This document shows positions 16,193-60,712 of a DNA stretch of 60,712 bases, piece by piece. This DNA is from a virus. Position 1 is the stretch's first letter. Each line of letters opens with the position of its first letter. The position numbers and the translations under genes are program-made. The stretch is from positions 1 to 60,712 of IMG/VR virus record IMGVR_UViG_3300032456_000003; one strand, 5' to 3'. The notes beneath the pieces are model-generated. The model was not told the DNA's origin, made no database searches, and saw nothing but the letters and a program-made list of their open reading frames with translations.

Positions 16193-16215
16193 AATTCTGG
16201 ACGATGTCCAGAATT
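16193..16215. promoter_or_regulatory. palindromic operator AATTCTGGAC-gat-GTCCAGAATT between P4 and the divergent RHH gene
   Basis: Perfect 10-bp arms, identical to those at 15404-15426. Confidence 0.6.
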
Positions 16216-16238
16216 TTCTACCGGGCCGCATGGAAGTC

Positions 16239-16268: not shown

Positions 16269-16538
16269 ATGAAGAAGACGCAGATGACGATCCGGTTGAG
16301 TCAGCAGTGGTACGACTCGCTGCCGGGCATCCTGGACAAGATCCGTGCGGACCTCGGGATACCCGGCCTGACGACGACGGACATCGTTGTGATGGGGATT
16401 CAGATCCTGACGGAGTGGGCGGCTCAGGCCTGTGCTGACCGCCCCGGAGTGTTGGGCGGGATCAAGCCGCCGCAACCGCAAGAATCGGAGAAACGCAACA
16501 AGCCAGGTGCCGGGCGGAAGCGGAAGCCGAAGGAGTGA
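16269..16538 (+). CDS. ribbon-helix-helix-like DNA-binding protein, candidate repressor of P3/P4
   Basis: One of only two plus-strand genes. The N-terminal MKKTQMTIRLSQQWYDSL fits a beta-strand-then-helix RHH pattern, and the tail is basic. It is divergent from P4 and adjacent to the palindrome. Confidence 0.55.
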   Translation: MKKTQMTIRLSQQWYDSLPGILDKIRADLGIPGLTTTDIVVMGIQILTEWAAQACADRPGVLGGIKPPQPQESEKRNKPGAGRKRKPKE

Positions 16539-24033: not shown

Positions 24034-24149
24034 GAGCGTTCGCGCCCCTGGCCTGCCCCTCGTAGGCTGAATCTCCCTCGGTTTTCATTCCCGCCAGGCG
24101 GTCGAGGGGACCGCTTTTCAGGCCGCGAACCCTAGGCGGGTTTGACTCG

Positions 24150-29893: not shown

Positions 29894-30194
29894 CGTTGTC
29901 GCCCTCCTCATCGGCCATCGGGTCGCGCACGCGGTCGGGATGGACTTCGGCCACGGCGTCCAGCGCGCGGGCTGCCTCGACCAGCCCGCCGACCCCGTAG
30001 GCCCGCTGATCAAGCGGGTAGAACATGCGGAACGCTTCCGGTGTGAAGTGGGCCAGGAACGGCTGGATTATTTCGTTGCCGCACTCCCACGTCCCGTCAT
30101 CCTTGAGGACCGCCGTCCACTTCCCGCCGTGGAACTCTCCGGTCAGCCGGCCGATGATGTTTTTGGGCAGACTCGCGTTTAGCTTTAGCGTCAT
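29877..30194 (-). CDS. hypothetical protein (105 aa)
   Basis: ORF starting 3 nt after the portal stop. Its C-terminus is acidic. Confidence 0.45.
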   Translation of the reverse strand: MTLKLNASLPKNIIGRLTGEFHGGKWTAVLKDDGTWECGNEIIQPFLAHFTPEAFRMFYPLDQRAYGVGGLVEAARALDAVAEVHPDRVRDPMADEEGDNDASDH

Positions 30195-30197
30195 GAC

Positions 30198-33842: not shown

Positions 33843-33878
33843 ACCCTCTGAGATGCAGGTGAATTAGACAGCCGCCGA

Positions 33879-34313
33879 TTATCCAGAAATGGCCTTCCCG
33901 CTTACATGGATCGGCGCGTAAAGTTCTCTGGCCACTCCGAGCCGGATGAGAAGTGGGTCGTCGGCAAAAACGCCTGCTTCGATTGCGTCCTTGAGATGCA
34001 CCGACCCGCGTAGCAGGATCGTTGCAAGTTGGCGTTTGATGTAATCGGCCAGCCTGGACTCGTCCTCGCTCTTGTCCCACGGGCAGCAGAACGTGCTTTC
34101 GTTGTTGACATCGATCATCAAACGCGGCCTTTCACCGGATGCGTCGATGCAGAAAAGAGAAACCTTGTCGGGATCATCTTCGACGACAAGGAACAGGCCG
34201 TCGTGGATATGCACGCTGGCACGTCCAGAATGCTCGCCCTCGTAAAAACAGCTTGACACCACCGATTCGATGCCGACCATCCTCACGTTCGGCACCACGA
34301 TTTGCTTTGCCAT
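33879..34313 (-). CDS. hypothetical protein (144 aa)
   Basis: ORF between the terminase nuclease gene and the portal gene. Confidence 0.45.
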   Translation of the reverse strand: MAKQIVVPNVRMVGIESVVSSCFYEGEHSGRASVHIHDGLFLVVEDDPDKVSLFCIDASGERPRLMIDVNNESTFCCPWDKSEDESRLADYIKRQLATILLRGSVHLKDAIEAGVFADDPLLIRLGVARELYAPIHVSGKAISG

Positions 34314-34337
34314 ATTCCCTCCCTTTGATTGTCTCGC

Positions 34338-35018
34338 TCAGAGGTCGCGTTCCCAGATCGGTTTGCCCTCGTCTCCACTGCTCTGCCCCGGCCCGAAGTC
34401 GTCGAAGTCTGCCGTTAGCGACCGACTGCTCTCCGCCGACCCGCCCCCGCCCCACGCGCCGAGTGTGAACCGCTCGGCCAGCCAGCACGCCATTGCGGCC
34501 GCAAGGACAAGGTCATCGTGGTCACCACTGCGGTGCGCCTCGTAGGTGTCGTTGCCGGACAGGGAAATCTTTGCTTTGAAGTTTTGAAGTTCCTTCATGA
34601 GCATTTCGCCCTCGCGAAGTCCCTTCGCGACCTGGAACCGGCGACGGCGAAGCAGGATTTGCATGATGGAGCAGAGGTCTCGCTTGGGGACGTTCCAGCC
34701 GTGGGCGGTCTCGGTGGCCGCGCTGCCTGACGTGATGCAGATAGCGCGAATTGGGATCTCGGCCCGGTGGAGGAAGATATCCACGATGGGCCGACCTACC
34801 CCCGTGTAATCGACGCACAGAATCGAATCGCCGAGGTTGTGCTTGCGCCAGGTGTCGTGTACCATATCGACGATGTCGGGATAGGACGTGCCCAGCGGGT
34901 AGCGGATCAGTTCGCGAAGTTTGTGGATGGCCGGATCGCCTTCCACCTCGTTGATCGCGAGGGCAGAGGGGTCGCCCGCTTGCCCGAGGTCCAGCCCGCC
35001 GATGAACATGCTCACCAC
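34338..35018 (-). CDS. terL: terminase large subunit, nuclease domain only (separate ORF)
   Basis: GGLDLGQAGDPSAL (first catalytic Asp region) and SGDHDDLVLAAAMA fit the RNase H-like TerL nuclease. The likely start is the ATG at 35009, 3 nt after the upstream stop. Confidence 0.7.
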   Translation of the reverse strand: MVSMFIGGLDLGQAGDPSALAINEVEGDPAIHKLRELIRYPLGTSYPDIVDMVHDTWRKHNLGDSILCVDYTGVGRPIVDIFLHRAEIPIRAICITSGSAATETAHGWNVPKRDLCSIMQILLRRRRFQVAKGLREGEMLMKELQNFKAKISLSGNDTYEAHRSGDHDDLVLAAAMACWLAERFTLGAWGGGGSAESSRSLTADFDDFGPGQSSGDEGKPIWERDL

Positions 35019-35224
35019 CGATTCTCAACAAGATGCTGTAAGTAATTTGCGTCTCGAATGATGTTCATCTGGCCCTGAACGATGCCAATTTGAGACCAAA
35101 CGGCATTCCGGTCCTCGGCCCACTTTACGCGCTGTGGGCTTCCAGGTGGTCCGCCGTCTACACGCATCAGCATATTGGATCGGTTCATCAGCCGATCCAT
35201 TCTGTTGTTAAGTTCGTCCATCAC
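35012..35224 (-). CDS. small protein (70 aa) inserted within the split terminase locus
   Basis: ATGA overlap with the upstream gene. Its GC content is noticeably lower than that of its neighbours. No motifs. Confidence 0.4.
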   Translation of the reverse strand: MMDELNNRMDRLMNRSNMLMRVDGGPPGSPQRVKWAEDRNAVWSQIGIVQGQMNIIRDANYLQHLVENRW

Positions 35225-35718
35225 TTCCCCATGCCCAACGAGACCGTCGAGAAAAACGTGTAGGTGCCGCTGGCCTCAATCATCGCATCGAAAGGCGTGT
35301 TTGTTGCCGTGGCAAAAATCGCCACGCGATTTCCCATCATGGGACGAATTGCTAGAGCCATATCGTACCTGACGAGGTCGGCGTCGTCGATTACCAGGAG
35401 GTCCGGGACGTATCCCCGGCCCTGGGAAGAGATCACCTGAATCACTGACGAGCCGCCCATGCTGACGGTCAATCCCCGGATCAGGGCCAGGGGGTTGAAT
35501 CGGCGGATGCACTCGACTTGCATCATCTCGTGGCTCGGCGTCACCATAACCACCTTCGCGCCAGGATTGCCCATTGCGAAACTGACCGCGAGAGCCGCCG
35601 CCGTGGTCGATTTTCCGCACCTCCGGTCGGCTCGAACAAGAATCCTCTTTGCGTCGCACCGCAGCACGGATAGCTGCCACGCCTCCGGTGTCAGCCCGAT
35701 TTTCTCGAACATGATCAT
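35221..35718 (-). CDS. second, shorter TerL-ATPase-like paralogue (165 aa)
   Basis: It has Walker A RRCGKST and Walker B DLLVIDDA. GLTPEAWQLSVL parallels PPDPWQDQVL of the upstream gene. It ends SLGMGK, like the upstream PLGMGK. Confidence 0.6.
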   Translation of the reverse strand: MIMFEKIGLTPEAWQLSVLRCDAKRILVRADRRCGKSTTAAALAVSFAMGNPGAKVVMVTPSHEMMQVECIRRFNPLALIRGLTVSMGGSSVIQVISSQGRGYVPDLLVIDDADLVRYDMALAIRPMMGNRVAIFATATNTPFDAMIEASGTYTFFSTVSLGMGK

Positions 35719-36419
35719 TTCCCCATGCCCAACGGCATCACGTCCGCGCGGAACGCTGCCCGGATGTCCTCATCGGCGAACGCCGCGCCGATCGAATCGA
35801 CGAATTCCGTCATGTACTCCTGATTGAACCACCGATCGCCCATCGACAGCAGTTCGTCCGCGAGGAACTCCTTGCTGTACCGCGGGCACATATGAGCCGT
35901 GATCCGCTCCCGGTGCCACTTCATGCCGCTGCCCCGCTCGGCCCCGCGTTCCCACTCCTCAAAAAACCAGCCCCTCTTGCCGAACGGCGTCGAGCATGCC
36001 ACCAGCCTCCCTTGCGAGATGCCCAGCATCGGGCGACACGCAAAGTACAGATCGTCCGGGATGCGGCTCGCCTCATCGATCATCAGCAGGTTGACCCCCG
36101 AGTAGCCCCGCACGCCCTTCTCGCTGCCAGGAATGCCGATGACACGCGAGCCATTGGCCAGCACCAGGCTCTGCTTCAAGTCCTCGGCGATCTTCGCCCC
36201 ACTGGCCACCAGCAGCGGCCTCACCTTCGTCTGAAGAAACTCGATGCTCTTTTCCATGTTCTGGGCGAGCACCAGGGCGAAGCACGGGGATTCGACGATC
36301 ATGGCCTTCGCCACCATCGCGCCGGCCACCGTGCTTTTGCCAACCTGTCGCGAACAGAGCATCATCAGGCGGGAGTGCGAGGACTTGAGGACTTGATCCT
36401 GCCACGGGTCAGGTGGCAT
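35715..36419 (-). CDS. terL: terminase large subunit, ATPase domain only
   Basis: It has Walker A SRQVGKST, Walker B LLMIDEA, the coupling motif ACSTP and FNQEYMTEF. The start was chosen at ATG 36419, which overlaps the TerS stop (ATGCCACCTGA). The track ORF extends to 36581. Confidence 0.75.
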   Translation of the reverse strand: MPPDPWQDQVLKSSHSRLMMLCSRQVGKSTVAGAMVAKAMIVESPCFALVLAQNMEKSIEFLQTKVRPLLVASGAKIAEDLKQSLVLANGSRVIGIPGSEKGVRGYSGVNLLMIDEASRIPDDLYFACRPMLGISQGRLVACSTPFGKRGWFFEEWERGAERGSGMKWHRERITAHMCPRYSKEFLADELLSMGDRWFNQEYMTEFVDSIGAAFADEDIRAAFRADVMPLGMGK

Positions 36420-36942
36420 GCCCGCCTGGGAGAGAATCGCCCCCGGCTCCATCCAAAAGCGATCCGTCGGTAGGAGCTTGCCCGTCAACAACCGACACTC
36501 CAGCCGCTGCATCCACGCGGGCATGGAGGCGAGCGACGGCGGTGAGGCGTTCTTGCTCGGTCCAGGTCGCGATGGGTCCACCTTCCGCCCCCGTGTGTTC
36601 CAGCCGCGTCACATCACCGTAGACAGGACGCCGGCGAGTTTTGAGGAAAAACATGAGAAGCGAGTCATTCGAGCCGTCCAGCGCCCGCTGGTAGCCAGCC
36701 AGTTCCAGCGAATCGATGGCGTCCTCTACCGCGTCCTCCCACGCCCTGGCGAAGTCCGGGTCTTCCTTCCTGCGGAGGTAGACCGCTGTCCTCCCGATCT
36801 GGGCCGCATCGCAAGAAGCCCGCACATTCGCCGTCAGACTCAGCACCTTGATGAACTGAATCGACCAGTCCGGAGGCGGGTTCGGCTTGCGGTATTTCTT
36901 GGCCGTAGTCCGTTTCGTTCTCTTTGCAGCCACGTCAACCAC
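36409..36942 (-). CDS. terS: terminase small subunit
   Basis: It has a basic N-terminus. ANVRASCDAAQIGRTAVYLRRKEDPDFARAWEDA is HTH-like, and SLLMFFLKTRRRPVY is a typical TerS block. It lies directly upstream of TerL. Confidence 0.65.
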   Translation of the reverse strand: MVDVAAKRTKRTTAKKYRKPNPPPDWSIQFIKVLSLTANVRASCDAAQIGRTAVYLRRKEDPDFARAWEDAVEDAIDSLELAGYQRALDGSNDSLLMFFLKTRRRPVYGDVTRLEHTGAEGGPIATWTEQERLTAVARLHARVDAAAGVSVVDGQAPTDGSLLDGAGGDSLPGGHAT

Positions 36943-37615
36943 CCTGCGCTAGAACGCGCTCGAGAGCCGAGCCGAAGCAGATCAGGAACTGCTCGTCGGT
37001 CAGGTCGAGGTACTGGTCAGCCTGCTCCAGTGTGGCACGAGCCTTCCACGGATCGCTCAGGCGTCCTTTTATTCGTTTCAACAATTGCCTTACTGCGTCG
37101 ATGTCTTCGGCGGGTCCGTAGAGGGTCATGGAGCCATGCACGTCCGGCTTGCCCTGCTGGGCCTGTTTGACGCCGGCGCGAGTGCGTTGCTGTGTGGCCT
37201 CGACGATTTGGCGGATGTTGTCGGTGGCGGTCAGTGCCCCCAGGGCGGCGAGGTCTGCGGTCCTGCGGGCGAGTTCGGTGAGTTGTGCGACGACGGCATC
37301 TTCGTCGAAGACTTTCCGATTGCGGTCGTGTGCGAGGACGAACGTCCTCCGCTCGTCGGGTTCCATGCCTGCCATGATAATGCAGGGGATGTCGGCCACG
37401 CCGGACGCTTCGAGTTCATCGAGTCGCGTGTTGCCGTCCAGGACTTCGTAGGTGCCGTCGTCGTTGGATGCGACGACAAGGACGCCAGCGAATCCGAATT
37501 TCTTCAGGCTCGCCTTCAGCCCCTTGGAGAATCTGGCTCCAAGGGGCTTCTTCGGATTATCGGAATTGTGGTGCAACTTGCCGATCGGCAAGAGTTGCAC
37601 CGGGTTGACCTTCAT
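36935..37615 (-). CDS. ParB-like nuclease domain protein
   Basis: LLPIGKLHHNSDNPKKP and YEVLDGNTRLDE resemble the ParB N-terminal/sulfiredoxin-like motifs. No ParA partner is present. Confidence 0.7.
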   Translation of the reverse strand: MKVNPVQLLPIGKLHHNSDNPKKPLGARFSKGLKASLKKFGFAGVLVVASNDDGTYEVLDGNTRLDELEASGVADIPCIIMAGMEPDERRTFVLAHDRNRKVFDEDAVVAQLTELARRTADLAALGALTATDNIRQIVEATQQRTRAGVKQAQQGKPDVHGSMTLYGPAEDIDAVRQLLKRIKGRLSDPWKARATLEQADQYLDLTDEQFLICFGSALERVLAQGG

Positions 37616-37771
37616 CGGTTATCCCCTGTTAACCACCGTAGGCCGCGCGTCGGGCGAGCTTGCGCTTGCTCTTCGCCGACTTGCCGCCTGTCCGCATCGT
37701 TCGGGAACTGGAAGATCGTTCCGCCACAGCTTCGCCCGGTCCTGTGCCGCCGCCCATACGTCACCCCTCAA

Positions 37772-39121
37772 TTAATCGTCCATCTTGCTGAGAACTTCCC
37801 GCAGATTGAATAGTAACGCATCTTCGAGTCCGGCTTCCGGGAAATCGCGACTGCCGTTCCATTTGATGTCCGGGTTGCGGACGCCTACGAGGTTGCCGTC
37901 TTCGTCGGCGAGCCAGTTGCCGTCCGACGTGCTAACGGCCTGGACGTAAGGCAGATACCAGAACAGGTAGTTGTTGTGCCAGGGATGGTTCCAGTAGTAG
38001 CGCAGGATCTCGTGGAGTCCGTTGCGCTTGCCGAGCCTGGCGCGGTATTCCTTGTGATCCGCTTTGACCTTGCTGTTGAATGGCCCCCAGAATTCGCTCA
38101 TGTCGAGTTCCTGGTCGGGCACGCCGAGGTGTTCGAGGGTTGCCTTGAAATCGTCCCAGGTGACGACCAGCTTCTTGCCAGCGTTCTCGCGGGCCGTGTC
38201 TTCCAGCATGCTCGTGAACTGAAACGCCACATCGAAGGTGTTGCCGCCCAGCCACTTGGGGTCCGCACATTCGGGATGCTTCGACGCGCATCCGAAGTAG
38301 GCGTCCCAGTACGGCGTGGGGAAGAAGTCGAGTCCGTAATCAGCAGTGGCCTTGTACCATTCCTTCAGATCGCGGATAAAATACCCAGGGTTCACGTTGG
38401 CTGCCGGGTAGAGTTCGTCGTGGTAGGTCTCTCGAACCTGACCGAACTGAGCCGCGCTGAAGTGAAGCCTCTCCAGCCAGACCCCTTTCGCGCCGACCGC
38501 AGCCGCCCGCTTGCAGTATTCGACCGGGGACGGCACCCACGCCTTAACGTACGGATTGCATGCCATCACGACCGGGATGCCGTGGTCAGTCAGTCGTGCG
38601 GCGAGTTCCCATCGCGACTCGATCGATTGCGCACCCGGCTCGAACCGCTTGCGAAGTTTGTCATCGAGTTGGCACAGCGACATGGCCACCACCACGCGGC
38701 CCGGTTCCAGCAGTGGCGCGTAGCGGTCGAAGTCGCTGGAGAGTACATTGCCCCGCGTCTGGATGTAGACGGGCACCTTTCGTTCCTTGCACCAGGAGAG
38801 GAACGCTTCGCTGGCCCGGTACGTTTTCTCGTCGCGCTGGAATGGATCGGTCGTGTTCGAGAAGCAGACCGGGTATCGGTTGCGCAGGAAGAAACCGATC
38901 GGGCTGTATTCGTCGTCCCACTCGCGGTCTAGCTTTCGCAGTGCGGACGCAGTGCTGTTGACCGGGTTCGGATCGCGATCGAATGCGTCGCGGTTCAGAT
39001 TGGCGAAGCAGAAGGAGCAAGATACGCTGCAATAGCCGTAGATGCTGACCTCGACCGGGAAGGGAGTTTGCGGCCAGATGCCGAAAAGCCGAACCGGGTC
39101 TTTGTTGAAATCGAACGCCAT
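37772..39121 (-). CDS. radical SAM enzyme (449 aa)
   Basis: YGYCSVSCSFCFANLN carries the CxxxCxxC cluster motif near the N-terminus. Trimmed to the ATG at 39121 (MAFDFNKDP...). Confidence 0.75.
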   Translation of the reverse strand: MAFDFNKDPVRLFGIWPQTPFPVEVSIYGYCSVSCSFCFANLNRDAFDRDPNPVNSTASALRKLDREWDDEYSPIGFFLRNRYPVCFSNTTDPFQRDEKTYRASEAFLSWCKERKVPVYIQTRGNVLSSDFDRYAPLLEPGRVVVAMSLCQLDDKLRKRFEPGAQSIESRWELAARLTDHGIPVVMACNPYVKAWVPSPVEYCKRAAAVGAKGVWLERLHFSAAQFGQVRETYHDELYPAANVNPGYFIRDLKEWYKATADYGLDFFPTPYWDAYFGCASKHPECADPKWLGGNTFDVAFQFTSMLEDTARENAGKKLVVTWDDFKATLEHLGVPDQELDMSEFWGPFNSKVKADHKEYRARLGKRNGLHEILRYYWNHPWHNNYLFWYLPYVQAVSTSDGNWLADEDGNLVGVRNPDIKWNGSRDFPEAGLEDALLFNLREVLSKMDD

Positions 39122-39131
39122 CGAGTCCCCC

Positions 39132-39782
39132 CTACTTGTTGTTCGCCGTGATCCTACCCGAATCCCGTGCCCAGAGGATACACGCGCGGGAGAGGTCGTC
39201 GTGGGCTTCCTGCGCCGTGTCGTAGCCCATCTCTGTCTTTTGCGGACCAAGGAAAAGCCACAGAAGATTTCTCACATAGCCTGACGGCTGTCCCGTTCTT
39301 TGCTCAGAACTGGGCCACCATCTGTACACGCTGCGAGTGGATTCCGCGTTTGAAAAGCGCGGCTCCTTGCCCGTCAGCCTCACCACCTCCACCGGCTGGC
39401 TCCTCATGATGGCCTGGCCATACTCTAGCCAGTAGGATTCCTCGCATCGAATTGCGTGGACGAACCCACGACGGAAAACGCATCCGAGTGGGTCGATGCT
39501 CGATAGCGATTCGCCTGCCCAGACGGATCGGAATTCATCAAGCAATTCATCTTCCCTGACCATGAGATTCATTAGCTTGACGGACTCATCACGGTTCTCA
39601 TCGAGATCGATCAAGACAGCGTCTGCCAGCGACAACTCGCACTGCACGCGAATGAGTTCGGCTCGCTTTTCCTCCCCGTGTTCCTCCAGCCAGTCGGCAT
39701 AGATCAGCCTCGGCGTGTCGTCTGCTGGATGATCGCAGATGTCCGCTACGAATGCGGCCCGCATGTCGGCATCAGTCGGCAT
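39132..39782 (-). CDS. TIGR02996 repeat-companion domain protein
   Basis: AAFVADICDHPADDTPRLIYADWLEEHGEEKRAELIRVQCEL matches the TIGR02996 signature known from Gemmata and myxobacteria. Confidence 0.7.
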   Translation of the reverse strand: MPTDADMRAAFVADICDHPADDTPRLIYADWLEEHGEEKRAELIRVQCELSLADAVLIDLDENRDESVKLMNLMVREDELLDEFRSVWAGESLSSIDPLGCVFRRGFVHAIRCEESYWLEYGQAIMRSQPVEVVRLTGKEPRFSNAESTRSVYRWWPSSEQRTGQPSGYVRNLLWLFLGPQKTEMGYDTAQEAHDDLSRACILWARDSGRITANNK

Positions 39783-39785
39783 AGA

Positions 39786-39932
39786 TCATTCTCGGCGTGT
39801 CGGGATGTTCTTTGTCCTGCTGTCGATTTTCACAACGGGCCGTTGTAGTATCGAAGAGACTACAGCGGCGAGACGAAATTCCGCTGCCAGGACGATTGCT
39901 GCAAGAAGAATGTGGAAGTCATCTTTAGTCAT
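39786..39932 (-). CDS. possible small membrane protein (48 aa, below track cutoff)
   Basis: MTKDDFHILLAAIVLAAEFRLAAVVSSIL... fills the gap between two genes. The support is weak. Confidence 0.3.
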   Translation of the reverse strand: MTKDDFHILLAAIVLAAEFRLAAVVSSILQRPVVKIDSRTKNIPTRRE

Positions 39933-40173
39933 GGCTCCCCTCCTCTTTCTCGTCGGCCCATATCAGCGTGGCGGTAGACCTTTGCTCGACTGCGTCCCAG
40001 ATGTAGCGATAGACCGTGACCGAGCAAGCTCTGGTCGATTCTTCCAGGAATCTTCTGGCGGCGACGATGGCTGCGTCCTTGACGATATAACTCCTGACAG
40101 GCGTGTAGCCCGTCGCGCCGTCGCGGGTATAGCGGACCCAGACGGCGAATGTCACATATCTACTCGGGCGCAT
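39925..40173 (-). CDS. hypothetical protein, tandem paralogue 2 (82 aa)
   Basis: It shares VTF.VWVR...IV.D.AI.AA...LEEST..C.V.VYR.I......RST.T.IW..EKEEG with 40160-40414. Confidence 0.5.
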   Translation of the reverse strand: MRPSRYVTFAVWVRYTRDGATGYTPVRSYIVKDAAIVAARRFLEESTRACSVTVYRYIWDAVEQRSTATLIWADEKEEGSHD

Positions 40174-40414
40174 GGTTCCCCTCCTCTTTCTCTTCGGACC
40201 ATATCACAGTGCAGGTAGAGCGGAGTTCGGCCCCGTTCCGGATGAAGCGATAGACCGACACCACGCAGGGCTCGGTCGATTCCTCCAGGAGTTTCTCAGC
40301 GGCGTCGATGGCCTCGTCTTTGCTGAGGATGTTCCGGCCTGCCCAGTGGCCCCATGTGTCTGAGGAGCGGGTTCTCACCCAGACTCCGAAGGTCACGTCT
40401 CTATTCGGGCACAT
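40160..40414 (-). CDS. hypothetical protein, tandem paralogue 1 (84 aa)
   Basis: Paralogous to 39925-40173, with overlapping ends. Confidence 0.5.
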   Translation of the reverse strand: MCPNRDVTFGVWVRTRSSDTWGHWAGRNILSKDEAIDAAEKLLEESTEPCVVSVYRFIRNGAELRSTCTVIWSEEKEEGNHAPE

Positions 40415-40632
40415 GGCTCTTGCTCCTCTCTCAGTCGCCCCTCACGAATCCAGTAGAGGATTTTTTCGGCCGGTCCCTGCGGATCGACCAGCAGCACAGG
40501 GACGCAGCCAGACGGCAGCCGGTCAACCGCCGTTGCCCCGCCGAAGTCGAGATACATTGCAACGATCCGATCATAGGGCTGGACGACGCACTCTCGCCCG
40601 GCCGCGATCTGTCCATCGTTCGCGATCCACAT
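40393..40632 (-). CDS. hypothetical protein (79 aa)
   Basis: ORF in the operon frame chain. No motifs. Confidence 0.4.
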   Translation of the reverse strand: MWIANDGQIAAGRECVVQPYDRIVAMYLDFGGATAVDRLPSGCVPVLLVDPQGPAEKILYWIREGRLREEQEPCARIET

Positions 40633-40635
40633 GGC

Positions 40636-40920
40636 TCACACCCTCCCCGTTCCGTGGCACACATAGCACTCCTCCAACTGAGCCTCCTTGTTGTGCATCT
40701 CGCCGAGACCCTGGCACAGACGGCACCCGCGCACAATCTCCCTCGGCAAGGTCTCATCGGCGAGGTATATCTCCGCCCGACATACCACGTCCTTTGCGCT
40801 GGCTGCCGCCCCGAGGCGACGAGCATCTTCGAGAGACAGTCCGCCGTGATGCCATTCGCGTTCGCCGTTGTAGCTGAGGACGAGGAGGTATTGCGGCTCA
40901 TCCGGTCGGTTCTTCGACAT
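40636..40920 (-). CDS. small protein with DnaJ-type CxxCxGxG zinc-finger motifs (94 aa)
   Basis: CRLCQGLG and CYVCHGTG lie at the C-terminus. The ATG at 40920 has a GAGGAGAG SD. Confidence 0.5.
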   Translation of the reverse strand: MSKNRPDEPQYLLVLSYNGEREWHHGGLSLEDARRLGAAASAKDVVCRAEIYLADETLPREIVRGCRLCQGLGEMHNKEAQLEECYVCHGTGRV

Positions 40921-41224
40921 GGCTCTCCTCAATTGCTCGGTCGCTCGCCCAGTTAATCAGCGCGTTCGACAGCCAGACGGCCAGTTCTTCCTGGCTCTGG
41001 AATGACTGGCTCGCCACATCCACGATCGTGGCCAGCAGCCGGCTCGCAAAGCAGGCGTCGCCGGACCACAACCCCTCCCAACTTTGCGTCGGCTCCCAGT
41101 CCGTGACTCGCACGCGGAAGACTGAACCCTTCCTGACCCATGTCGGCCCGTGGTCGATCCACTCGGCCGCTGTGCATTCGATGGTTGGCACCACAATCGC
41201 CTTACCTGCCTCTTCCGTCGTCAT
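40898..41224 (-). CDS. hypothetical protein (108 aa)
   Basis: ORF with an ATGA-type junction to the upstream gene. Confidence 0.45.
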   Translation of the reverse strand: MTTEEAGKAIVVPTIECTAAEWIDHGPTWVRKGSVFRVRVTDWEPTQSWEGLWSGDACFASRLLATIVDVASQSFQSQEELAVWLSNALINWASDRAIEESHVEEPTG

Positions 41225-41454
41225 GATGCTTTATCCTCATTCCTCGTCTGGCACTCATGCTTTCTGGCGGTCATCCCGTTGACGCGCTCGGCGGGAGGGA
41301 CGTGGCGAGTCTCGCTCACGAACCCATCGAGCATGATCGTGTACTTGCCGCGCGGGTCTGTCACACCGTCGAGGTAGACGTTCTTTGCCACCCACGGCAT
41401 CACGCCCCGCAAGACAAGCTGGCCGCAGTGTCGGCAGTTTTCGGCGATTGTCAT
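41221..41454 (-). CDS. small Cys-containing protein (77 aa)
   Basis: Trimmed to the ATG at 41454 (MTIAENCRHCGQ...), 20 nt after the upstream stop. Confidence 0.4.
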   Translation of the reverse strand: MTIAENCRHCGQLVLRGVMPWVAKNVYLDGVTDPRGKYTIMLDGFVSETRHVPPAERVNGMTARKHECQTRNEDKAS

Positions 41455-41473
41455 GATGTCTTGCCGTCCTCCC

Positions 41474-42235
41474 TCAAAAACACATCCCGGAAGTGCAACC
41501 ACCAGAAAATAAATCGCCGCCCTTGCGATCCAGCGTCACCATACGCAGCGGGATCGCTTTGCGGTGCAGGTAGACATGCGGGTCTACCTGGCGAATTCGC
41601 TCGTCTAGCAGGCACGCGGACTCCCACTCCTCTGCGGTCAGTTGGCCCCACTCCTCATCGCCCTGGTTGGGGCAGAAGTGGCACCGCGATCTGGCCGGCT
41701 CTGGCCAGCCGACACGCTCGACGGCGGCGAGGCAACCGGAGACGTGCATCGGACACACGTCGAGCAGGGGGTAGACCGGCTGAATCCACTGCTTGCGAGA
41801 CGCGCGTCTACGGTGTCGTTCCTCCCACGAGATGCCCAGCCACACATCGACCCCGCGATCCTTCCAGCCGGGCTGTTCCGCAGCCCAGCGGTTTCCGACT
41901 TCGCGCTTCCATTCTCCGGAGCAATACTCGCCGAATTTCGAGACTCCCCCGCTCTGATTTGTGTACGCGGGTATCAGCAGAGTGTCGCCGTCCGCGCCGC
42001 CCCATAGGTCTTTCGTCGCGTACTTCGCTCGGTCGATGACCGAGAACGGAATACCCATCCGCTCCATCGCCGGACGGATGTAGGTATCGACGTAGGGCCA
42101 GACGGTTCCGATTTCCCCCTCAAGCCGGATCATGCACGCATGGTCCGGCTTGGGCAATCGCCCCTCGACGATTAGGGCCGCGATTCCTGCGGACTGCCGA
42201 CCGCCACCGCACGACCATAGTTGCACACGGCTCAT
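41474..42235 (-). CDS. PAPS reductase-like PP-loop enzyme
   Basis: The N-terminal LWSCGGGRQSAGI resembles the SGGxDS PP-loop. The size, the Cys-rich C-terminal region (CHFCPNQ) and the C-terminal end GGCTSGMCF are typical of phage PAPS-reductase/DndC-like proteins. Confidence 0.6.
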   Translation of the reverse strand: MSRVQLWSCGGGRQSAGIAALIVEGRLPKPDHACMIRLEGEIGTVWPYVDTYIRPAMERMGIPFSVIDRAKYATKDLWGGADGDTLLIPAYTNQSGGVSKFGEYCSGEWKREVGNRWAAEQPGWKDRGVDVWLGISWEERHRRRASRKQWIQPVYPLLDVCPMHVSGCLAAVERVGWPEPARSRCHFCPNQGDEEWGQLTAEEWESACLLDERIRQVDPHVYLHRKAIPLRMVTLDRKGGDLFSGGCTSGMCF

Positions 42236-45822: not shown

Positions 45823-45928
45823 AGTTGCCCCTCGCGAAAAATAATGCCCCCACCGAGGCCCAACCGTTGGCCATTTGAGGGGAGGCGTAACCCCTCTGCC
45901 TCCGTCCCCTCGGCGGGGGCAAGCCGCA

Positions 45929-46270
45929 TCAAGTCCCGAACGCCGCTGCCGCCCGCACCAGCAGATGGATCAATTCCCCCGAGCCGAGTTGCTGGGGGGT
46001 CAGCCGCAGCAAGTGCCAGCCCCGCAGGGCCAGCTCGTTGTACTTTTCCATGTCCCGCATGAACCCGCTGCCGCGAGTGTGCCGCCCGCCCGTCCAGACG
46101 CCGCCCTCGCACTCCACCGCGATCAGCTGCGCTGGCCAGGCGAAGTCAACCCGCCACAGGCGAGGACGGGCAAAGACGTACTCAGGCTCCGGAGCGGGCA
46201 GCCCGGCCTCGCATGCCGCTATCATGACCGCGACCGGGATAGCTTTTGCAGCCTTCCGTTTCGCCATCAC
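45929..46270 (-). CDS. Vsr/DUF559-like PD-(D/E)xK endonuclease
   Basis: WRVDFAWPAQLIAVECEGGVWTGGRHTRG...DMEKYNELALRGWHLLRLT matches the D...E.(D/E)G...K.N...GW.V.R pattern. Confidence 0.6.
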   Translation of the reverse strand: MMAKRKAAKAIPVAVMIAACEAGLPAPEPEYVFARPRLWRVDFAWPAQLIAVECEGGVWTGGRHTRGSGFMRDMEKYNELALRGWHLLRLTPQQLGSGELIHLLVRAAAAFGT

Positions 46271-51605: not shown

Positions 51606-51971
51606 TTACCCTCCAGCGACGCCCCAATCCAGGACGTTTGCCAGCGCGAACGTCATCCGCAAGGCGCTGTTCAAGTCGATTACATCCATCATCCACTGCG
51701 GCGATGGATGCCACTCGGTCGCGCCGAACCAGATTTTCAGCGGCATGATTCGCCGCATCGCGATCTCGCCGCGATGGTTGAGGTACTGGACATGCACATC
51801 AGCGTCTGGCTTCGCCCCTGGATTTCTTTCGGGCTGCCCCCTGTGAATCTCCAGGTCTTGCGGCGCTTCGACCCCGATCCGAATCTGCCCCCGTTCGATG
51901 TCAACGACGGTGATGACGATGTCCTTGCCGATGTAGATTTTCTCGGTCACCTTGCGAGTCAGTACCAGCAT
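51606..51971 (-). CDS. csrA: CsrA-family RNA-binding regulator fused to a ~70-aa C-terminal domain
   Basis: MLVLTRKVTEKIYIGKDIVITVVDIERGQIRIGVEAPQDLEIHRG matches the CsrA consensus nearly position by position. The extra domain is HRGEIAMRRIMPLKIWFGATEWHPSPQW... Confidence 0.75.
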   Translation of the reverse strand: MLVLTRKVTEKIYIGKDIVITVVDIERGQIRIGVEAPQDLEIHRGQPERNPGAKPDADVHVQYLNHRGEIAMRRIMPLKIWFGATEWHPSPQWMMDVIDLNSALRMTFALANVLDWGVAGG

Positions 51972-57491: not shown

Positions 57492-58172
57492 TCAGGTGCC
57501 AGGCGTTGGCGTCAGGCGGGAGAGTGCGCGGAGCAGTTGCTCCGCGACCGGGGGCCGATTCAGCGCCTCCACAGCGGAGGCGATCCTCCGGTGAATCCGC
57601 AGCGTCCCGGATAGTTCCGGGTCCATGTCGGCCCGGCCTGCTGCGGCAAGCTCGCCGGCAAGCTCGCCGGCAAGACCGAGGAACAGGTCGATGCGGCCGG
57701 CGAAGTCCGCCTCCGCCCGGTCCAGTCCGGGGTCCGGAGGCAAGGGCCGGCCGGTGAGCTTGCCAACCGCCCAGCGGACGAGCAGGGCGTCGTCCAACTG
57801 GGCGAAGCTGTCCCAGGCGAGGCCGAACCGCTCACCTTCCGGCTCGTCATCGTCCTCGACGAGCCAGCCGAACCGCCTCCGCCAGTGGGCGAGATCGAAC
57901 GCCGCGGCCCCGACCAGATCCAGAATCCGCTCGCGGTCAGCCTGGACCCACAGGTCCAGCAGTCGGGCGGATTCAGTGACCCAAGGAATCTCGATGGGGT
58001 CCGGGGCCAGTCGTTCCAGGCCGGCCCACAAGGCCAGCAGCTCGCTGGCGAGCTGCTGAGTCGGGTAGAGTTCCCAGATCGAAAGCGGACCCGTGATTCG
58101 GCCGGCGACCATCTGGCGAGGCGTCAGCGGCCGCACGTCCACACTGTGGACGTGCAAGGGTTTGTCGGTCAT
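57492..58172 (-). CDS. hypothetical protein (226 aa)
   Basis: Trimmed to the ATG at 58172 (MTDKPLHVHSV...), which has an AAAGGAGGG SD and overlaps the upstream stop. Confidence 0.5.
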   Translation of the reverse strand: MTDKPLHVHSVDVRPLTPRQMVAGRITGPLSIWELYPTQQLASELLALWAGLERLAPDPIEIPWVTESARLLDLWVQADRERILDLVGAAAFDLAHWRRRFGWLVEDDDEPEGERFGLAWDSFAQLDDALLVRWAVGKLTGRPLPPDPGLDRAEADFAGRIDLFLGLAGELAGELAAAGRADMDPELSGTLRIHRRIASAVEALNRPPVAEQLLRALSRLTPTPGT

Positions 58173-58522
58173 AGACCCTCCTTTTCTGCCTGCGTCCCCG
58201 GAGGGGGGACGCGGTGGAATGTGACGTAGCACCCTGTCGGCAGTCCTGGGATCATGGCGATGAGGGCGCGGAACGCCTCCGCCTCCCGATCCTCTGGCCC
58301 TTCCCGCTCCCGCTCCCCCCTGGTGGAGAGACATCGCAGGAGTCTCCCTTCGTGACAGAGCCAGAGATAGTAATCTCGTGGCACCGGTGGCGCGGGCGGC
58401 GGCACGGGCACGAGGCCCTTGCCGTCGCAGTTGTTGCAGTCCCCGTACTCGTTGTAGCCGGGCGCGAAGCCCGTGCCGCCGCACAGCGGGCATTCCTTTT
58501 CCGTCGTCGAAATCGTAACCAT
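58169..58522 (-). CDS. small protein with DnaJ-type zinc-finger motifs (117 aa)
   Basis: It carries CPLCGGTG and CNNCDGKG. The ATG at 58522 has a GAAGGAG SD. Confidence 0.5.
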   Translation of the reverse strand: MVTISTTEKECPLCGGTGFAPGYNEYGDCNNCDGKGLVPVPPPAPPVPRDYYLWLCHEGRLLRCLSTRGEREREGPEDREAEAFRALIAMIPGLPTGCYVTFHRVPPPGTQAEKEGL

Positions 58523-58523
58523 C

Positions 58524-58754
58524 TCATCTCCTTCGCGCCCGGAATATCCGGGCGGAAACCGTGTCCTCGTCGTCCTTTTCCGCGCGGGCGGGGGAACTGA
58601 TCCGCCCGCTGCCCTGGCAAGATGGGCATTCCGTTTCGCGGCGTCCGCCGCCGTGCGGGTCGCCGCACCACAGGCCACCACACACGTCGCAGCCGCAGAG
58701 ACAAAGCCAGGAGCCGATCCGTCCAACTCCCTGGCACCCGCCGCATTCGTTCAC
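58524..58754 (-). CDS. Cys-rich small protein (76 aa)
   Basis: It has CGGCQGVG, CLCGCDVCG and CPSCQGSG. Its start overlaps the upstream stop. Confidence 0.4.
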   Translation of the reverse strand: MNECGGCQGVGRIGSWLCLCGCDVCGGLWCGDPHGGGRRETECPSCQGSGRISSPARAEKDDEDTVSARIFRARRR

Positions 58755-59254
58755 GGGGTGTGCCCTCCATCCCGGAGAACGTACACGTGACGGCCGACGC
58801 CTCCCCGCACCCAGGCGTCAGCCTCCGCCTCCGAGTGGAGAAGCTGCACCTCGTAGGGCATCGCCGAGCCGTCGCTGGCCATGCCCACCCAGTGGGGTCC
58901 GGTGGTCGGGACGGTGCCGGCCACCAGCCTGGTCACCGCCCGTACCTGTCCGTTTTCCCTGATGGCGGTTGCCCCTGTGTCCGGGGCGAAGACAATGCCC
59001 AGGTCCGGGTGCTTGGACGCAGACATGGCGTCCAGGCACATCGACGACACGATGGCGATCGCGCCATCGGGGATGAGTGGCATCGCCACCCGCCCGTAGG
59101 TACGGCGGACAACGGGCACCCCACCGATGACATCGCCCGTCGGCGTCTCGACGGCGGTTACCAGGGCGACATGCCCAGACGGGGGGTAGGTCACCTCGGT
59201 GCCGTCGGCGTGCCGCAGCGTGATCGCGTGCGGCGTGAGATTCAGGATGTTCAT
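58751..59254 (-). CDS. hypothetical protein (167 aa)
   Basis: Trimmed to the ATG at 59254 (MNILNLTPHAITL...), which has an AAAGAGGAG SD. Confidence 0.5.
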   Translation of the reverse strand: MNILNLTPHAITLRHADGTEVTYPPSGHVALVTAVETPTGDVIGGVPVVRRTYGRVAMPLIPDGAIAIVSSMCLDAMSASKHPDLGIVFAPDTGATAIRENGQVRAVTRLVAGTVPTTGPHWVGMASDGSAMPYEVQLLHSEAEADAWVRGGVGRHVYVLRDGGHTP

Positions 59255-59321
59255 GGTCCGCTCCTCTTTGTTGGCTCCACCTGGGAAACGCATCTCAGGT
59301 GGGGCCAGTGACAAGAATTTC

Positions 59322-59375
59322 GTTCACAATCCCGCCGCCGGCATCGAGCCGGCTCGCATCCACTGCGGCGGGTGG
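59322..59375 (-). promoter_or_regulatory. tRNA T-arm/acceptor-like minihelix, copy 4 (divergent loop)
   Basis: The minus strand reads CCCGCC-GCAGUGGAUGCGA-GCCGG-CUCGAUG-CCGGC-GGCGGG-AUUGUGAAC. It begins about 5 nt after the stop of 59380-59823. Confidence 0.5.
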
Positions 59376-59379
59376 CTGG

Positions 59380-59823
59380 TCAGCCAGCCACTCGGCTGGG
59401 GTCTATCGGAATGCGGATGGTCAGCATCCTGCGACTGAGGCCGGCCCCGGTCGGCAAAATGGAGGCATGCCACCCGGCAAACCGCAGCGCCTCGATGATT
59501 TGATTTCGTGCAAAGGGCCGCCCCCATACCATGTCCAGCAGCATCGGGGCTGCGCCCCATGTATGCGGCCAGTCGTTACCCTCACCCGCGTGCCGCACCC
59601 ACGAAGCAGGGGGCGGCGTGCGGGTGCCGACGCTGACGCCGTCAGCGACGAGGTGGCGATACTCCATCTCCTGGCCGGGGATGGTGGCAGCCACCGACGG
59701 GTCGATCGAGAATTCGATCAGGAGCGAAAGTGAAGTCGCTCCTGGCCCGAGTGTGACGTGATTCGCCGCCGCGTGTTCTGCGGCGCGTAGGATGATCGCG
59801 ATCTCAGAATCGAAACTCGTCAT
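59380..59823 (-). CDS. hypothetical protein (147 aa)
   Basis: Trimmed to the ATG at 59823 (MTSFDSEIAII...), which has a CAGGAGAG SD. It lies between two minihelix elements. Confidence 0.5.
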   Translation of the reverse strand: MTSFDSEIAIILRAAEHAAANHVTLGPGATSLSLLIEFSIDPSVAATIPGQEMEYRHLVADGVSVGTRTPPPASWVRHAGEGNDWPHTWGAAPMLLDMVWGRPFARNQIIEALRFAGWHASILPTGAGLSRRMLTIRIPIDPSRVAG

Positions 59824-59851
59824 GGTCGTCTCTCCTGTTCGTCTCGTGTTC

Positions 59852-59906
59852 GTCACAATCCCGCCCCCGGAGTCGAACCGGGGAAGCCGCCTATCGGCCG
59901 GGGTGG
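59852..59906 (-). promoter_or_regulatory. tRNA T-arm/acceptor-like minihelix, copy 5 (with extra 4-bp arm)
   Basis: The minus strand reads ACCCCG-GCCG-AUAGG-CGGC-UU-CCCCGG-UUCGACU-CCGGGG-GCGGG-AUUGUGAC. It begins about 4 nt after the stop of 59910-60194. Confidence 0.55.
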
Positions 59907-59909
59907 ATA

Positions 59910-60194
59910 TCAGCACTGGCCGCACTGGCCATCATCGTCGAGCGGTGCGGTGCATCCGCATTCCCAGCATCGACCTTCCTCGCCGCGACTGCGACGGCGG
60001 GGATTACTTGCGGTCGGTGCGGCCGTAGCCGAGGCCACACCGCCGACCGTGTCCGCCATCACCCAGAACTCTTTGCTCCCGTCGAGGAAGCTCAGCTTGG
60101 CCTTGCGGCCGAACTTCGTTTGACCGAGGAACAACAGGCGGTACGTCTTGCCCTTGTAGGTGCAGGTCTTGGCGTTCGTGGTCGTGGTCGGCAT
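59910..60194 (-). CDS. small protein with C-terminal zinc-ribbon-like Cys pairs (94 aa), first gene behind P1
   Basis: The ATG at 60194 follows the conserved leader and a GGAGAG SD. It ends CWECGC...DDDGQCGQC. Confidence 0.5.
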   Translation of the reverse strand: MPTTTTNAKTCTYKGKTYRLLFLGQTKFGRKAKLSFLDGSKEFWVMADTVGGVASATAAPTASNPRRRSRGEEGRCWECGCTAPLDDDGQCGQC

Positions 60195-60238
60195 GGTCGT
60201 CTCTCCGGTTTGCGTGTGTCGTTCTTCCTTACACCTTT

Positions 60239-60291
60239 AATATACGTCGCATGACATTGGATGTCAATGTCATTCGACGGATTATTTAGGA
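60239..60291 (-). promoter_or_regulatory. early promoter P1 (TTGACA-17-TATATT) with palindrome and 28-nt block shared with P2
   Basis: The -35 is at 60262-60267 and the -10 at 60239-60244 on the minus strand. ATGACATTG-gatgt-CAATGTCAT (60251-60273) overlaps the -35. The block 60264-60291 equals 901-928. Confidence 0.6.
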
Positions 60292-60546
60292 AAGCTTTCT
60301 TCGGCGGATTTCCTGGTCCACGGCGAGCATCGCATCGGTCGGAACCCCCCGACGGTCGGCGAGCCACTGATCCACAGTCGTCTTGCGCACGCCGCAAATT
60401 GCGGCGAGGGTAGCTCGGTCGTACTCGAGTAGGGCCATCGCGGCCCGAAGCCCTGCGATGTCCTCGGTTGGTTCTCCATCGACGATAAAGACCGGCCGGC
60501 CAGCAATGCTGGCCGGGTGGTCTACGGTTGCTTCGATCTTCGGCAT
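60286..60546 (-). CDS. XRE/Cro-like HTH DNA-binding protein (86 aa), last gene of operon P2
   Basis: Trimmed to the ATG at 60546 (MPKIEATVD...), which has a GGAGAAAG SD. ATLAAICGVRKTTVDQWLADRRGVP is a helix-turn-helix. Confidence 0.6.
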   Translation of the reverse strand: MPKIEATVDHPASIAGRPVFIVDGEPTEDIAGLRAAMALLEYDRATLAAICGVRKTTVDQWLADRRGVPTDAMLAVDQEIRRRKLS

Positions 60547-60563
60547 GATTGCTTTCTCCGATT

Positions 60564-60596
60564 GTCGGGCGACGACTAGATTGTACGTCGCCCGAC
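60564..60596 (-). promoter_or_regulatory. 11-bp perfect hairpin immediately 5' of the SD of the HTH gene
   Basis: GTCGGGCGACG, an 11-nt loop, then CGTCGCCCGAC. The 3' arm coincides with position 1 of the contig. Confidence 0.45.
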
Positions 60597-60712
60597 GAAC
60601 GCTGGCAAGGTAGATCACCGACCGCCCTTCTCATCCTCCGAGTTGCGGGTGGACTCGATCCGCCCGTCCATCATGGCGTCCCACGCACCCCTTGCGCGGG
60701 TCACCACGGCAT
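60586..60712. repeat. terminal overlap identical to 1-127
   Basis: Verbatim repeat of the first 127 nt. Confidence 0.9.

Follow-up and report, generated by a model that had tools for sequence, protein, structure and literature searches.

The stacking of the acceptor stem on the T-arm and the elbow between D-loop and T-loop are the features of transfer RNA (tRNA) used for comparison with tRNA-like RNAs; minihelices of acceptor stem and T-arm serve as substrates for RNase P, RNase Z and the CCA-adding enzyme, all of which recognise this elbow. tRNA-shaped RNAs that mark transcript cuts are textbook knowledge for mitochondria and are known for a few eukaryotic long non-coding RNAs. In the early operon of phage T7, RNase III sites divide the polycistronic RNA, and each message is left with a protective hairpin at its 3′ end. 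The motif GGTTCRANYCC led to the discovery of plant mitochondrial t-elements, whose ends coincide with mapped messenger RNA (mRNA) ends that are ascribed to RNase P and RNase Z (PMC1920247). Here, we describe short tRNA-like elements in the IMG/VR virus record IMGVR_UViG_3300032456_000003, a metagenomic phage genome whose full 60,712 bp were analysed and are called the window below. It contains five copies, all on the minus (coding) strand: E1, E2, E3, E4 (copy 5) and E5 (copy 4), the last two of which lie in an operon behind promoter P1. The same unannotated element family, together with its RNA structure, very probably spans Gordonia and Mycobacterium phages, the window phage and a low-GC metagenomic contig.

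The phage elements resemble t-elements in forming a truncated tRNA-like fold around GGTTCRANYCC beside coding regions, and the same motif logic served for the discovery of both; copy 5 and E1–E3 conform to the motif, while copy 4 deviates at two positions. However, t-elements are organellar, each genome having only a few, and most of them retain a non-canonical cloverleaf, whereas the phage elements occur in five to at least 17 copies, have no anticodon arm and are fixed 0–13 nt past a stop codon, their cleavage being only predicted. The mascRNA/MEN-beta family (RF01684) shares with them an acceptor stem, a small GG-containing D-like hairpin, a T-arm and action in cis within a long transcript, but is eukaryotic and retains a short anticodon stem. 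In Rfam, a copy from Gordonia phage VanLee matched mascRNA/menRNA best (26.8 bits, E = 0.03, below the gathering threshold of 42.5 bits). For the window copies, Rfam scans at gathering and at E-value level returned no family, including no mascRNA and no tRNA, and ARAGORN found no tRNA at the five element sites; with linkers of just 8–14 nt, the elements do not form the cloverleaf of a canonical tRNA.

The order of gene, tRNA-shaped RNA and gene also recalls mitochondrial tRNA punctuation and bacterial tRNA-mRNA co-transcripts, where tRNA-maturation enzymes separate the cistrons; functional tRNAs are used there, in contrast to the non-decoding mimics here. The T7 sites are likewise structured intercistronic elements of a phage early operon, but they are long double-stranded RNase III substrates rather than tRNA mimics and are related neither in sequence nor in structure. 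Intrinsic or moron terminators similarly place a G+C-rich structure directly after a gene with its own promoter, and the AUUUU/AUUGU tail of the window copies adds to this likeness; in the phage elements, however, the stem is bulged or branched, only 3–4 U follow, the T-loop is conserved, and other members have no U-tract. Finally, bacterial Y RNAs (YrlA) and the tRNA-like domains of transfer-messenger RNA (tmRNA) are elbow mimics of bacteria and some mycobacteriophages, combining a T-arm with a D-loop-like GG (PMC4201824). These are single-copy stand-alone RNAs of 100–350 nt that additionally carry a Ro-binding stem or an mRNA-like region, whereas the phage elements are 40–55 nt long, repeated between genes and without an Rfam match.

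Architecture of the five copies

All copies share an outer stem of 4–6 bp, a GG-containing linker on the 5′ side and an inner stem of 5–7 bp, which is closed by UUCGAYU in every copy but copy 4, where the loop is CUCGAUG. The 3′ strands of the two stems abut with a gap of 0 in five out of five copies, and the combined helix always measures 11–12 bp, like the acceptor/T-arm stack of tRNA, while the break between the stems moves (5+6, 5+6, 5+7, 4+7 and 6+5 bp in E1, E2, E3, copy 5 and copy 4, respectively). An unpaired GG is present in every linker, namely in the AUAGG loop of copy 5, the GUGGA loop of copy 4, ACUGGCUU of E1 and E2 and AUGGUGUA of E3. Read on the minus strand, copy 5 is UGA-UAUCCAC-CCCG-(GCCG AUAGG CGGC)-U-UCCCCGG-UUCGACU-CCGGGGG-CGGG-AUUGUGACGAAC, and its T-loop context GGUUCGACUCC matches GG-UUCRAYU-CC. 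Copy 4 reads UGA-CCAGCCA-CCCGCC-(GCA GUGGA UGC)GA-GCCGG-CUCGAUG-CCGGC-GGCGGG-AUUGUGAACGAA; its context GGCUCGAUGCC differs from GG-UUCRAYU-CC at two loop positions, and it is the most degenerate of the five.

An earlier note on this DNA had described copies 4 and 5 as T-arm-like, and the coordinates it gave hold for both when they are read on the coding strand. The stacked helix of 11–12 bp, the T-loop and the linker GG bear out the likeness to a T-arm with acceptor stem, and the additional D-arm-like hairpin that the note assigned to copy 5 (GCCG-AUAGG-CGGC) is present both in the sequence and in the RNAfold structure. Copy 4 had been called a two-stem element: its outer stem and T-stem indeed fold, but a 3-bp linker hairpin, GCA-GUGGA-UGC, is also predicted. 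Overall, the elements appear to imitate the upper half of a tRNA, with an acceptor-like stem stacked on a T-arm, the T-loop GGUUCGAYUCC and a GG where G18-G19 of the D-loop sit, the anticodon arm being absent.

The nested structures were both the minimum free energy and the centroid structure of RNAfold in all five copies. Single-sequence fold z-scores were weak (−0.2 for copy 5 and −1.9 for copy 4) because the DNA is G+C-rich. MAFFT was unable to align the five copies structurally, because the position of the bulge shifts between them, and a descriptor and a model-based alignment were used instead. The descriptor (outer stem of at least 4 bp, 5′ bulge of 5–18 nt, inner stem of at least 5 bp, loop YUCRANN, abutting 3′ strands) found exactly five copies with gap zero and an ATT tail on the coding strand, against three tail-less matches on the opposite strand and a mean of 1.1 in shuffled sequence. 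GGTTCGAYTCC with at most one mismatch occurs 11 times in the window versus 3.3 expected, a count reached by none of 100 shuffles; enrichment of the tail sequence by itself in the window was not significant.

The elements start 3, 13, 4, 7 and 7 nt past a stop codon, both copies 5 and 4 at 7 nt. The upstream stop codons are the TGA at 59912-59910, which ends the 94-aa gene before copy 5, and the TGA at 59382-59380, which ends the 147-aa gene before copy 4, just where the earlier note had placed them, and its segmented operon was found in the order P1, 94-aa gene, copy 5, 147-aa gene, copy 4, 167-aa gene. The next ATG lies 36 nt past the end of copy 5. Around the stop codon of the 147-aa gene, a separate 8-bp hairpin, GUGGCUGG-CUGA-CCAGCCAC (59372-59391, minus strand), carries the UGA in its loop, and its last C also belongs to the outer stem of copy 4. 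Such a hairpin could compete with the folding of this element or couple folding to translation termination.

A wider family and its covariation

A blastn search of E2 against deposited phages gave a match in unannotated intergenic DNA of Gordonia phage VanLee, where the gaps of the leftward operon of the right arm hold at least 17 elements, each built in the same way and lying on the gene strand. A scan of IMG/VR for GGTTCGAYTCC-N5-9-GGGCACG matched at least 120 stretches, among them Mycobacterium phage Cuke with 10 copies, each 0–11 nt past a stop codon; Mycobacterium phage Fowlmouth contains 11–13 copies. Overall, the elements lie on the sense strand, 0–13 nt past a stop codon and 30–80 nt before the next start. 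The regions compared were Cuke 27743-37224 (L151/L218), Fowlmouth 31000-42000 (L219) and VanLee 40001-84560 (L097). In these three phages, an element follows almost every small gene, and between it and the next ATG there are only an ACG, a second covarying hairpin and a conserved leader with a Shine–Dalgarno (SD) sequence, without a U-tract. This leaves no room for a promoter, and the elements there thus lie inside polycistronic RNA and are not efficient canonical terminators. TTGAY after the Cuke elements was considered as a −35 box and rejected, as it is the 5′ arm of the second hairpin. Some annotated open reading frames (ORFs) overlap elements (Cuke gp43 and gp44) and are possibly mis-called.

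The subtype of the window (CCCGG...CCGGG-AUUU) was also found twice in L063, a low-GC metagenomic contig, 6–7 nt past a stop codon and before an SD sequence, indicating that it is not limited to high-GC phages. The bases that follow the helix differ by lineage, the A being followed by CG in the Mycobacterium and Gordonia phages and by UU in the window phage and L063.

A covariance model (R1) was built from eight copies of VanLee, Cuke and IMG/VR, none of them from the window, and the whole window was searched on both strands with filters off. The top four matches in the 60.7 kb were E1 (35.5 bits, E = 6e-7), E2 (34.9 bits, E = 9e-7), E3 (29.2 bits, E = 2.7e-5) and the T-arm of copy 5, which alone was matched in that copy (21 bits, E = 0.0036). 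A second model (R2), built from the matches that R1 had collected and including E1–E3, matched copy 5 at full length (59902-59860, 27 bits, E = 0.005), with AUAGG aligned to the AuGG of the family. Copy 4 was detected by neither model in the window search. By model score, copy 5 is probably a family member, and copy 4 appears to be a degenerate paralogue linked by position, architecture and tail.

The 63 matches of R1, from about 45 contigs, were aligned and comprise 60 distinct sequences; 97.2% of the pair cells hold standard pairs versus 72.7% after shuffling, in an alignment that is model-fitted. Double changes occur in nine of the 12 pairs, and the covariation score is 0.57 versus 0.12 in the shuffled control, while sliding the partner by one to three columns lowered pairing to 29–59%. 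The 22 G.U cells, against eight A.C cells, favour a sense-strand RNA. The linker GG is seen in family column 30 as a G in 56 of the 60 sequences; the invariance of the T-loop and GGGCACG columns is partly by construction, because the IMG/VR members were ascertained through them. Less biased evidence is provided by orthologous copies of Cuke and Fowlmouth, where the DNA is 92–94% identical and the stems are swapped with full compensation (GGUAGG/CCUACC versus GGGGAG/CUCCCC and UGAUGG/CCAUCA versus UAGAGG/CCUCUA).

The suggestion that selection acts on structure is therefore upheld within the window, where stems differ among copies with both sides changed and the loop and proximal tail are kept, and the compensatory changes expected in homologous phages are present in the wider family; contigs of the window phage's own relatives lack coverage of the region. 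Chance or a tRNA-fragment relic was excluded because of the covariation and the matching 5′ strand. A tRNA-gene fragment or attachment-site (att) remnant was likewise rejected: each of the five copies has its own complementary 5′ strand, the stems differ, and none lies beside an integrase. True remnants of tmRNA 3′ ends, found in two betaproteobacterial metagenome-assembled genomes (L009 3469-3496 and L012 1799-1826), look different and lack this fold. These are duplicated tmRNA 3′ ends beside hipBA, in L009 with the true ssrA 3.6 kb away, and resemble att remnants left by an island that integrated into ssrA, unrelated to the elements.

Further searches for relatives added little to this family. 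When viral, genome and metagenome sequences were scanned for the exact pattern with the window-type tail (71 metagenome loci), most of the matches were tRNAs, coding sequence or att remnants of tmRNA; none of these loci encodes relatives of the window phage, and only L063 is a family member. A match in Mycobacterium phage DyoEdafos was rejected as a tRNA/tmRNA-like RNA with an ACCA end, outside the element family. This unannotated RNA (34970-35085, or about 1930-2045 of L096) has the acceptor GCGAUAC/GUAUCGC, a canonical T-arm, a 3′ ACCA and a long internal insert; it could represent a tmRNA missed in annotation or a tRNA-like gene of an unusual kind. Among the neighbouring proteins, the 147-aa and 208-aa products were orphans in relative searches, apart from one remote relative of the latter on a 1.2-kb contig in a different context. 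Homologues of the 702-aa tail protein revealed three real relatives (L017–L019) with structural proteins 54–80% identical; no element copy was found in them, and their contigs end before the element regions. No element-bearing relative was found when the proteins of IMG/VR were scanned with the 702-aa, MT-A70 and tube proteins, and all contigs with identical proteins were 100% identical to the window, without strain variants. The leader pattern described below gave one chance match only in IMG/VR.

Promoters, leaders and genome setting

The window was assembled circular: its first 127 bases recur at the end, positions 1-127 being identical to 60586-60712, which is the overlap of the circular assembly, and the true genome measures about 60,585 bp. 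It is 100% identical to contigs of three independent assemblies (JGI 3300009084, ENA ERZ27246977 and SRR5208700). No close relative was found among deposited phages, and megablast of 58000-60712 against phages gave no match. The GC content is 62%, and the minus strand carries nearly all genes, which encode a Mu-gpT-type capsid, a Mu-type portal, tail proteins, PhoH, MT-A70 and C5 methylases, a helicase and a CsrA homologue (PF02599, about 51606-51971, minus strand). Coordinates of the elements and of the genes and promoters around them are collected in Table 1.

Table 1. Positions of the elements, their parts, and the associated genes and promoters (window coordinates, except for L063, where they are those of the contig)
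Feature	Position	Strand	Remarks
Copy 5 (E4)	59848-59902	minus	Fold, descriptor and model matches; tail AUUGUGACGAAC
Copy 5 outer stem	CCCG 59902-59899 / CGGG 59863-59860	minus	
Copy 5 D-arm-like mini-hairpin	59898-59886	minus	GCCG-AUAGG-CGGC
Copy 5 inner T-stem	UCCCCGG 59884-59878 / CCGGGGG 59870-59864	minus	7 bp
Copy 5 loop	59877-59871	minus	UUCGACU
Copy 4 (E5)	59319-59372	minus	Fold z = −1.9, descriptor; linker GCAGUGGAUGCGA, tail AUUGUGAACGAA
Copy 4 outer stem	CCCGCC 59372-59367 / GGCGGG 59336-59331	minus	
Copy 4 inner T-stem	GCCGG 59353-59349 / CCGGC 59341-59337	minus	Loop diverged, CUCGAUG
E1	15776-15824 (core 15824-15787)	minus	Core as E2; tail AUUUUCGACCG
E2	15109-15159 (core 15159-15123)	minus	CCCCG - ACUGGCUU - CCCCGG UUCGAUU CCGGGG - CGGGG - AUUUUGACCGAA
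E3	517-567 (core 567-529)	minus	CCCCG - AUGGUGUA - GCGCGGG UUCGACU CCCGCGC - CGGGG - AUUGUGACCGAA
First P1 gene	59910-60194	minus	94 aa; Arg-rich stretch, C-terminal CxxC...CxxC (zinc-ribbon); no family match
Second P1 gene	59380-59823	minus	147 aa; between copies 5 and 4; orphan protein
Third P1 gene	58751-59254	minus	167 aa; downstream of copy 4
Promoter P1	60195-60267	minus	TTGACA-17-TATATT and conserved leader GGTGTAAGGAAGAACGAC...GGAGAGACGACC; promoter scans
Promoter P2	~905-826	minus	Followed by 84-aa gene, then E3
Promoter P3	15399-15328	minus	Followed by 51-aa membrane peptide, then E2
Promoter P4	16188-16110	minus	Followed by 93-aa gene, then E1
L063 elements	2559-2600 and ~3179-3235	minus	

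The window has four copies of a consensus sigma-70-type promoter (at 60267, 905, 15399 and 16188), each joined to the identical leader GTGTAAGGAAGAACGAC, which is found four times versus 0.1 expected. At all four promoters, the first small ORF is trailed by an element; P3 and P4 sit moron-like inside the tail-gene region. P2 and P1 stand in tandem over the circular junction, with about 640 bp between them. The promoter-plus-leader units are near-identical cassettes (60195-60300, 826-925, 15328-15430 and 16110-16220, minus strand). A palindrome, TGACATTG..CAATGTCA, over the −35 box is common to P1 and P2, and AATTCTGGACA..TGTCCAGAATT is found upstream of both P3 and P4, beside a divergent 89-aa gene (16269-16538, plus strand); this suggests two separate repressor circuits. 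One contig of an independent assembly of the window phage (L093, Logan SRR5208700_4657) breaks exactly at P4 (about 16190). Repeated promoter and element cassettes may fragment short-read assemblies, which is a possible reason why the contigs of relatives stop there.

The leaders of the four promoters and the five untranslated regions (UTRs) behind the elements align on a common module, (GAC)CGAAC...CGAAC(C/A)GGAGAGACGACCAUG. This bears on the conserved 3′ flank emphasised by the earlier note. Its proximal tail is kept while the stems vary; its distal part (CGAAC...GGAG...ACGACCAUG), however, is also present in the four promoter leaders, so that the flank is partly a common 5′-UTR module and not part of the element. 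Only A-U-U-K-U, that is A-U-U-(G/U)-U, directly after the helix is element-specific, and other lineages have an ACG tail, which makes a flanking recognition sequence a weaker proposal than it had seemed. Each post-element UTR holds two GGA motifs 23–31 nt apart. Both these motifs and the AAGGAAG and SD sequence GGAG of the conserved leaders are possible targets of translational shut-off with CsrA.

Other features of the window lie apart from the elements. A 9-nt tandem repeat (GGCCAGTGC twice, coding GQCGQC; 59913-59930, minus strand) forms the last CxxC of the 94-aa protein, directly before its stop codon and copy 5. The sole Rfam match at gathering level in the window is an int-alpA RNA (43.1 bits, 24075-24142, minus strand), which immediately precedes the gene of the Mu-gpT-type major capsid protein (23068-24033) rather than that of an integrase. 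A direct repeat of 412 bp (92% identity, 7493-7903 and 7964-8374) is located within a 1062-aa tail-fibre gene. The tRNA-Ile(GAT) called by ARAGORN at 45869-45968 (minus strand) is almost certainly a false positive, as its 100 nt fall within an ORF and match no tRNA in Rfam.

Possible functions and meaning of the elements

The reading that we tentatively prefer, as a possibility somewhat short of even, is that the elements are cis-acting tRNA mimics that are read by host tRNA-end nucleases and so segment and cap operon mRNAs. Processing is favoured because the closest precedents (t-elements, mascRNA-type signals and mitochondrial punctuation) are cut by tRNA-end enzymes. The folded mimic would be recognised by host tRNA-end maturation enzymes, RNase Z or RNase E would cut directly 3′ of the unpaired A behind the helix, and RNase P would possibly cut at the 5′ base of the helix, severing the operon transcript between cistrons. 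The upstream cistron would then keep (or shed) a nuclease-resistant tRNA-like 3′ cap, which would be kept after a single 3′-side cut, and the downstream cistron would start with its own leader, a 5′ hairpin in the actinophages and a primary-transcript-like leader in the window phage. Promoter-proximal small genes could thereby gain an expression and a stability that do not depend on the genes that follow. The lineage-specific bases after the helix, CG or UU behind the A, could reflect the preferences of host nucleases.

Several points weigh against such processing, each step of which is one that we infer. The elements have no 3′ CCA, and the window copies lack a terminal G-C pair (A.A, G.A or C.A is found instead); on both counts they should be poorer RNase P substrates. 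A cut on the 5′ side would leave the upstream mRNA just 3–13 nt past its stop codon. Copy 4 has been retained although its T-loop is without U54 and U60 and neither model detects it, which implies that strict tRNA mimicry may be unnecessary. The AUUUU/AUUGU tail and the layout of promoter, gene and element would also fit a weak terminator, and the contigs of the window phage's relatives do not reach the element regions.

The main rival is accordingly that the elements are leaky intrinsic terminators or attenuators, where a moron-like unit of promoter and small gene would be closed by a G+C-rich hairpin with AUUUU/AUUGU and read-through or antitermination would feed the genes downstream; we consider this unlikely. 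The arrangement at all four promoters speaks for it, as do the A and 3–4 U within 8 nt that follow the outer stem directly, and this subtype recurs, with the tails AUUUC and UUUUG, in the low-GC contig L063. Moreover, no enrichment of canonical hairpin-plus-U-run terminators was seen on the rest of the coding strand, and the host may therefore rely on weak ones. However, none of the five elements passes a terminator scan with a threshold of at least 5 T in 8 (a G+C-rich hairpin is present, and the tails hold 3–4 U), a bulge of 8–14 nt breaks the stem beside the tail, and the conserved T-loop, the linker GG and the constant helix of 11–12 bp are left unexplained. The Cuke, Fowlmouth and VanLee members lack any U after the helix (ACG...) and stand behind nearly every gene without space for a promoter, while mycobacterial RNA polymerase is reported to require a U-tract (PMC3993855). 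E1 and E2 also lie upstream of tail and tail-fibre genes that late transcripts must reach. The idea of terminators without poly-U, for which phage phiC31 is known, was rejected, as phiC31 holds no family member. Rather improbable, in our view, are trans-acting tRNA decoys, minihelices of about 45 nt that would be excised or accumulate and titrate acceptor/T-arm binders (defence toxins, CCA-adding or repair enzymes, EF-Tu), the intergenic site being incidental. Although the high copy number (five in the window, 10 to at least 17 in Cuke, Fowlmouth and VanLee), the occurrence in early or promoter-proximal transcripts and the conserved elbow features agree with decoys, and VanLee encodes a Ro-like protein, a nucleotidyltransferase and a polynucleotide kinase, decoys would not need the tight coupling to stop codons (0–13 nt) and to the leader of the next gene. 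The acceptor sequences also vary widely, indicating that no specific tRNA identity is copied, and the window phage encodes no tRNA-repair genes.

Two further explanations find little favour on this evidence. The elements have only a slim chance of being DNA-level cassette boundaries, either homologous linkers or folded single-strand sites for swapping small accessory genes, broadly like integron attC, with the RNA structure secondary. Orphan small genes do alternate with elements in arrays, the homology blocks of Cuke and Fowlmouth stop at element/leader borders (3038/3336 and 3936/4329), and E1/E2 with P3/P4 resemble a recent cassette duplication; on the other hand, ordinary homologous recombination puts junctions at conserved sequence anyway, no recombinase is linked to the elements, and a site acting as DNA fits poorly with the strict strand specificity relative to genes, the asymmetric T-loop motif and the excess of G.U over A.C cells (22 versus 8). 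It is just as improbable that they are binding sites for a regulatory protein controlling the next cistron, by nut/put-like antitermination or by translational control, for example through the phage CsrA acting on the GGA at the junction of helix and tail and on the SD sequence. The promoter-proximal position after the first gene, comparable to that of lambda nutR and HK022 putR, would suit such sites, and the window phage offers candidate partners in its CsrA (PF02599), in the two GGA motifs 23–31 nt apart in each downstream UTR and in the 94-aa product of the first P1 gene with its Arg-rich stretch and zinc ribbon. Nevertheless, the first GGA is base-paired, the actinophage members have a different tail and no CsrA, Rfam scans show no similarity to boxA/boxB or put, and arrays of more than 10 copies elsewhere do not suit a promoter-proximal antitermination site.

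A broader form of the processing reading, which we regard as very doubtful, would see tRNA punctuation in several unrelated phage lineages (actinophages, the 62%-GC window phage and a low-GC phage), where a minimal acceptor/T-arm/GG-elbow mimic behind each cistron would recruit RNase P, Z or E to dice early operons and the freed minihelices would accumulate as abundant anti-defence tRNA decoys. In their second role, the minihelices would blunt defences aimed at the acceptor end of tRNAs, such as nucleotidyltransferase or nuclease toxins.

No description of such phage elements was found in the literature searches that were run; the VanLee genome announcement is silent on them, and in a catalogue of 10,006 candidates for structured viral RNAs, tRNA-like motifs come up in general terms only. 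A repeated, dedicated tRNA-like punctuation device in bacteriophage operons is apparently undescribed. The structural reading of the two hairpins offered by the earlier note was right and the mechanism it suggested appears plausible. The main value of the analysis is that these two hairpins lead to a widespread family of tRNA-like elements in cultivable phages. The element is small and strongly covarying, and it lies unannotated in phages amenable to laboratory culture, with Mycobacterium smegmatis as the host of Cuke and Fowlmouth and Gordonia as that of VanLee, which makes the question of its function directly testable. If the elements are processed, this would explain the individual mRNA fate of small early phage genes and would provide compact insulator or stabiliser parts for engineering, and annotation pipelines should then flag the elements, at which ORFs are possibly mis-called at present (Cuke gp43/gp44 and a 72-aa call at P3); if they are terminators or decoys instead, either role would be equally new for an RNA of such shape.

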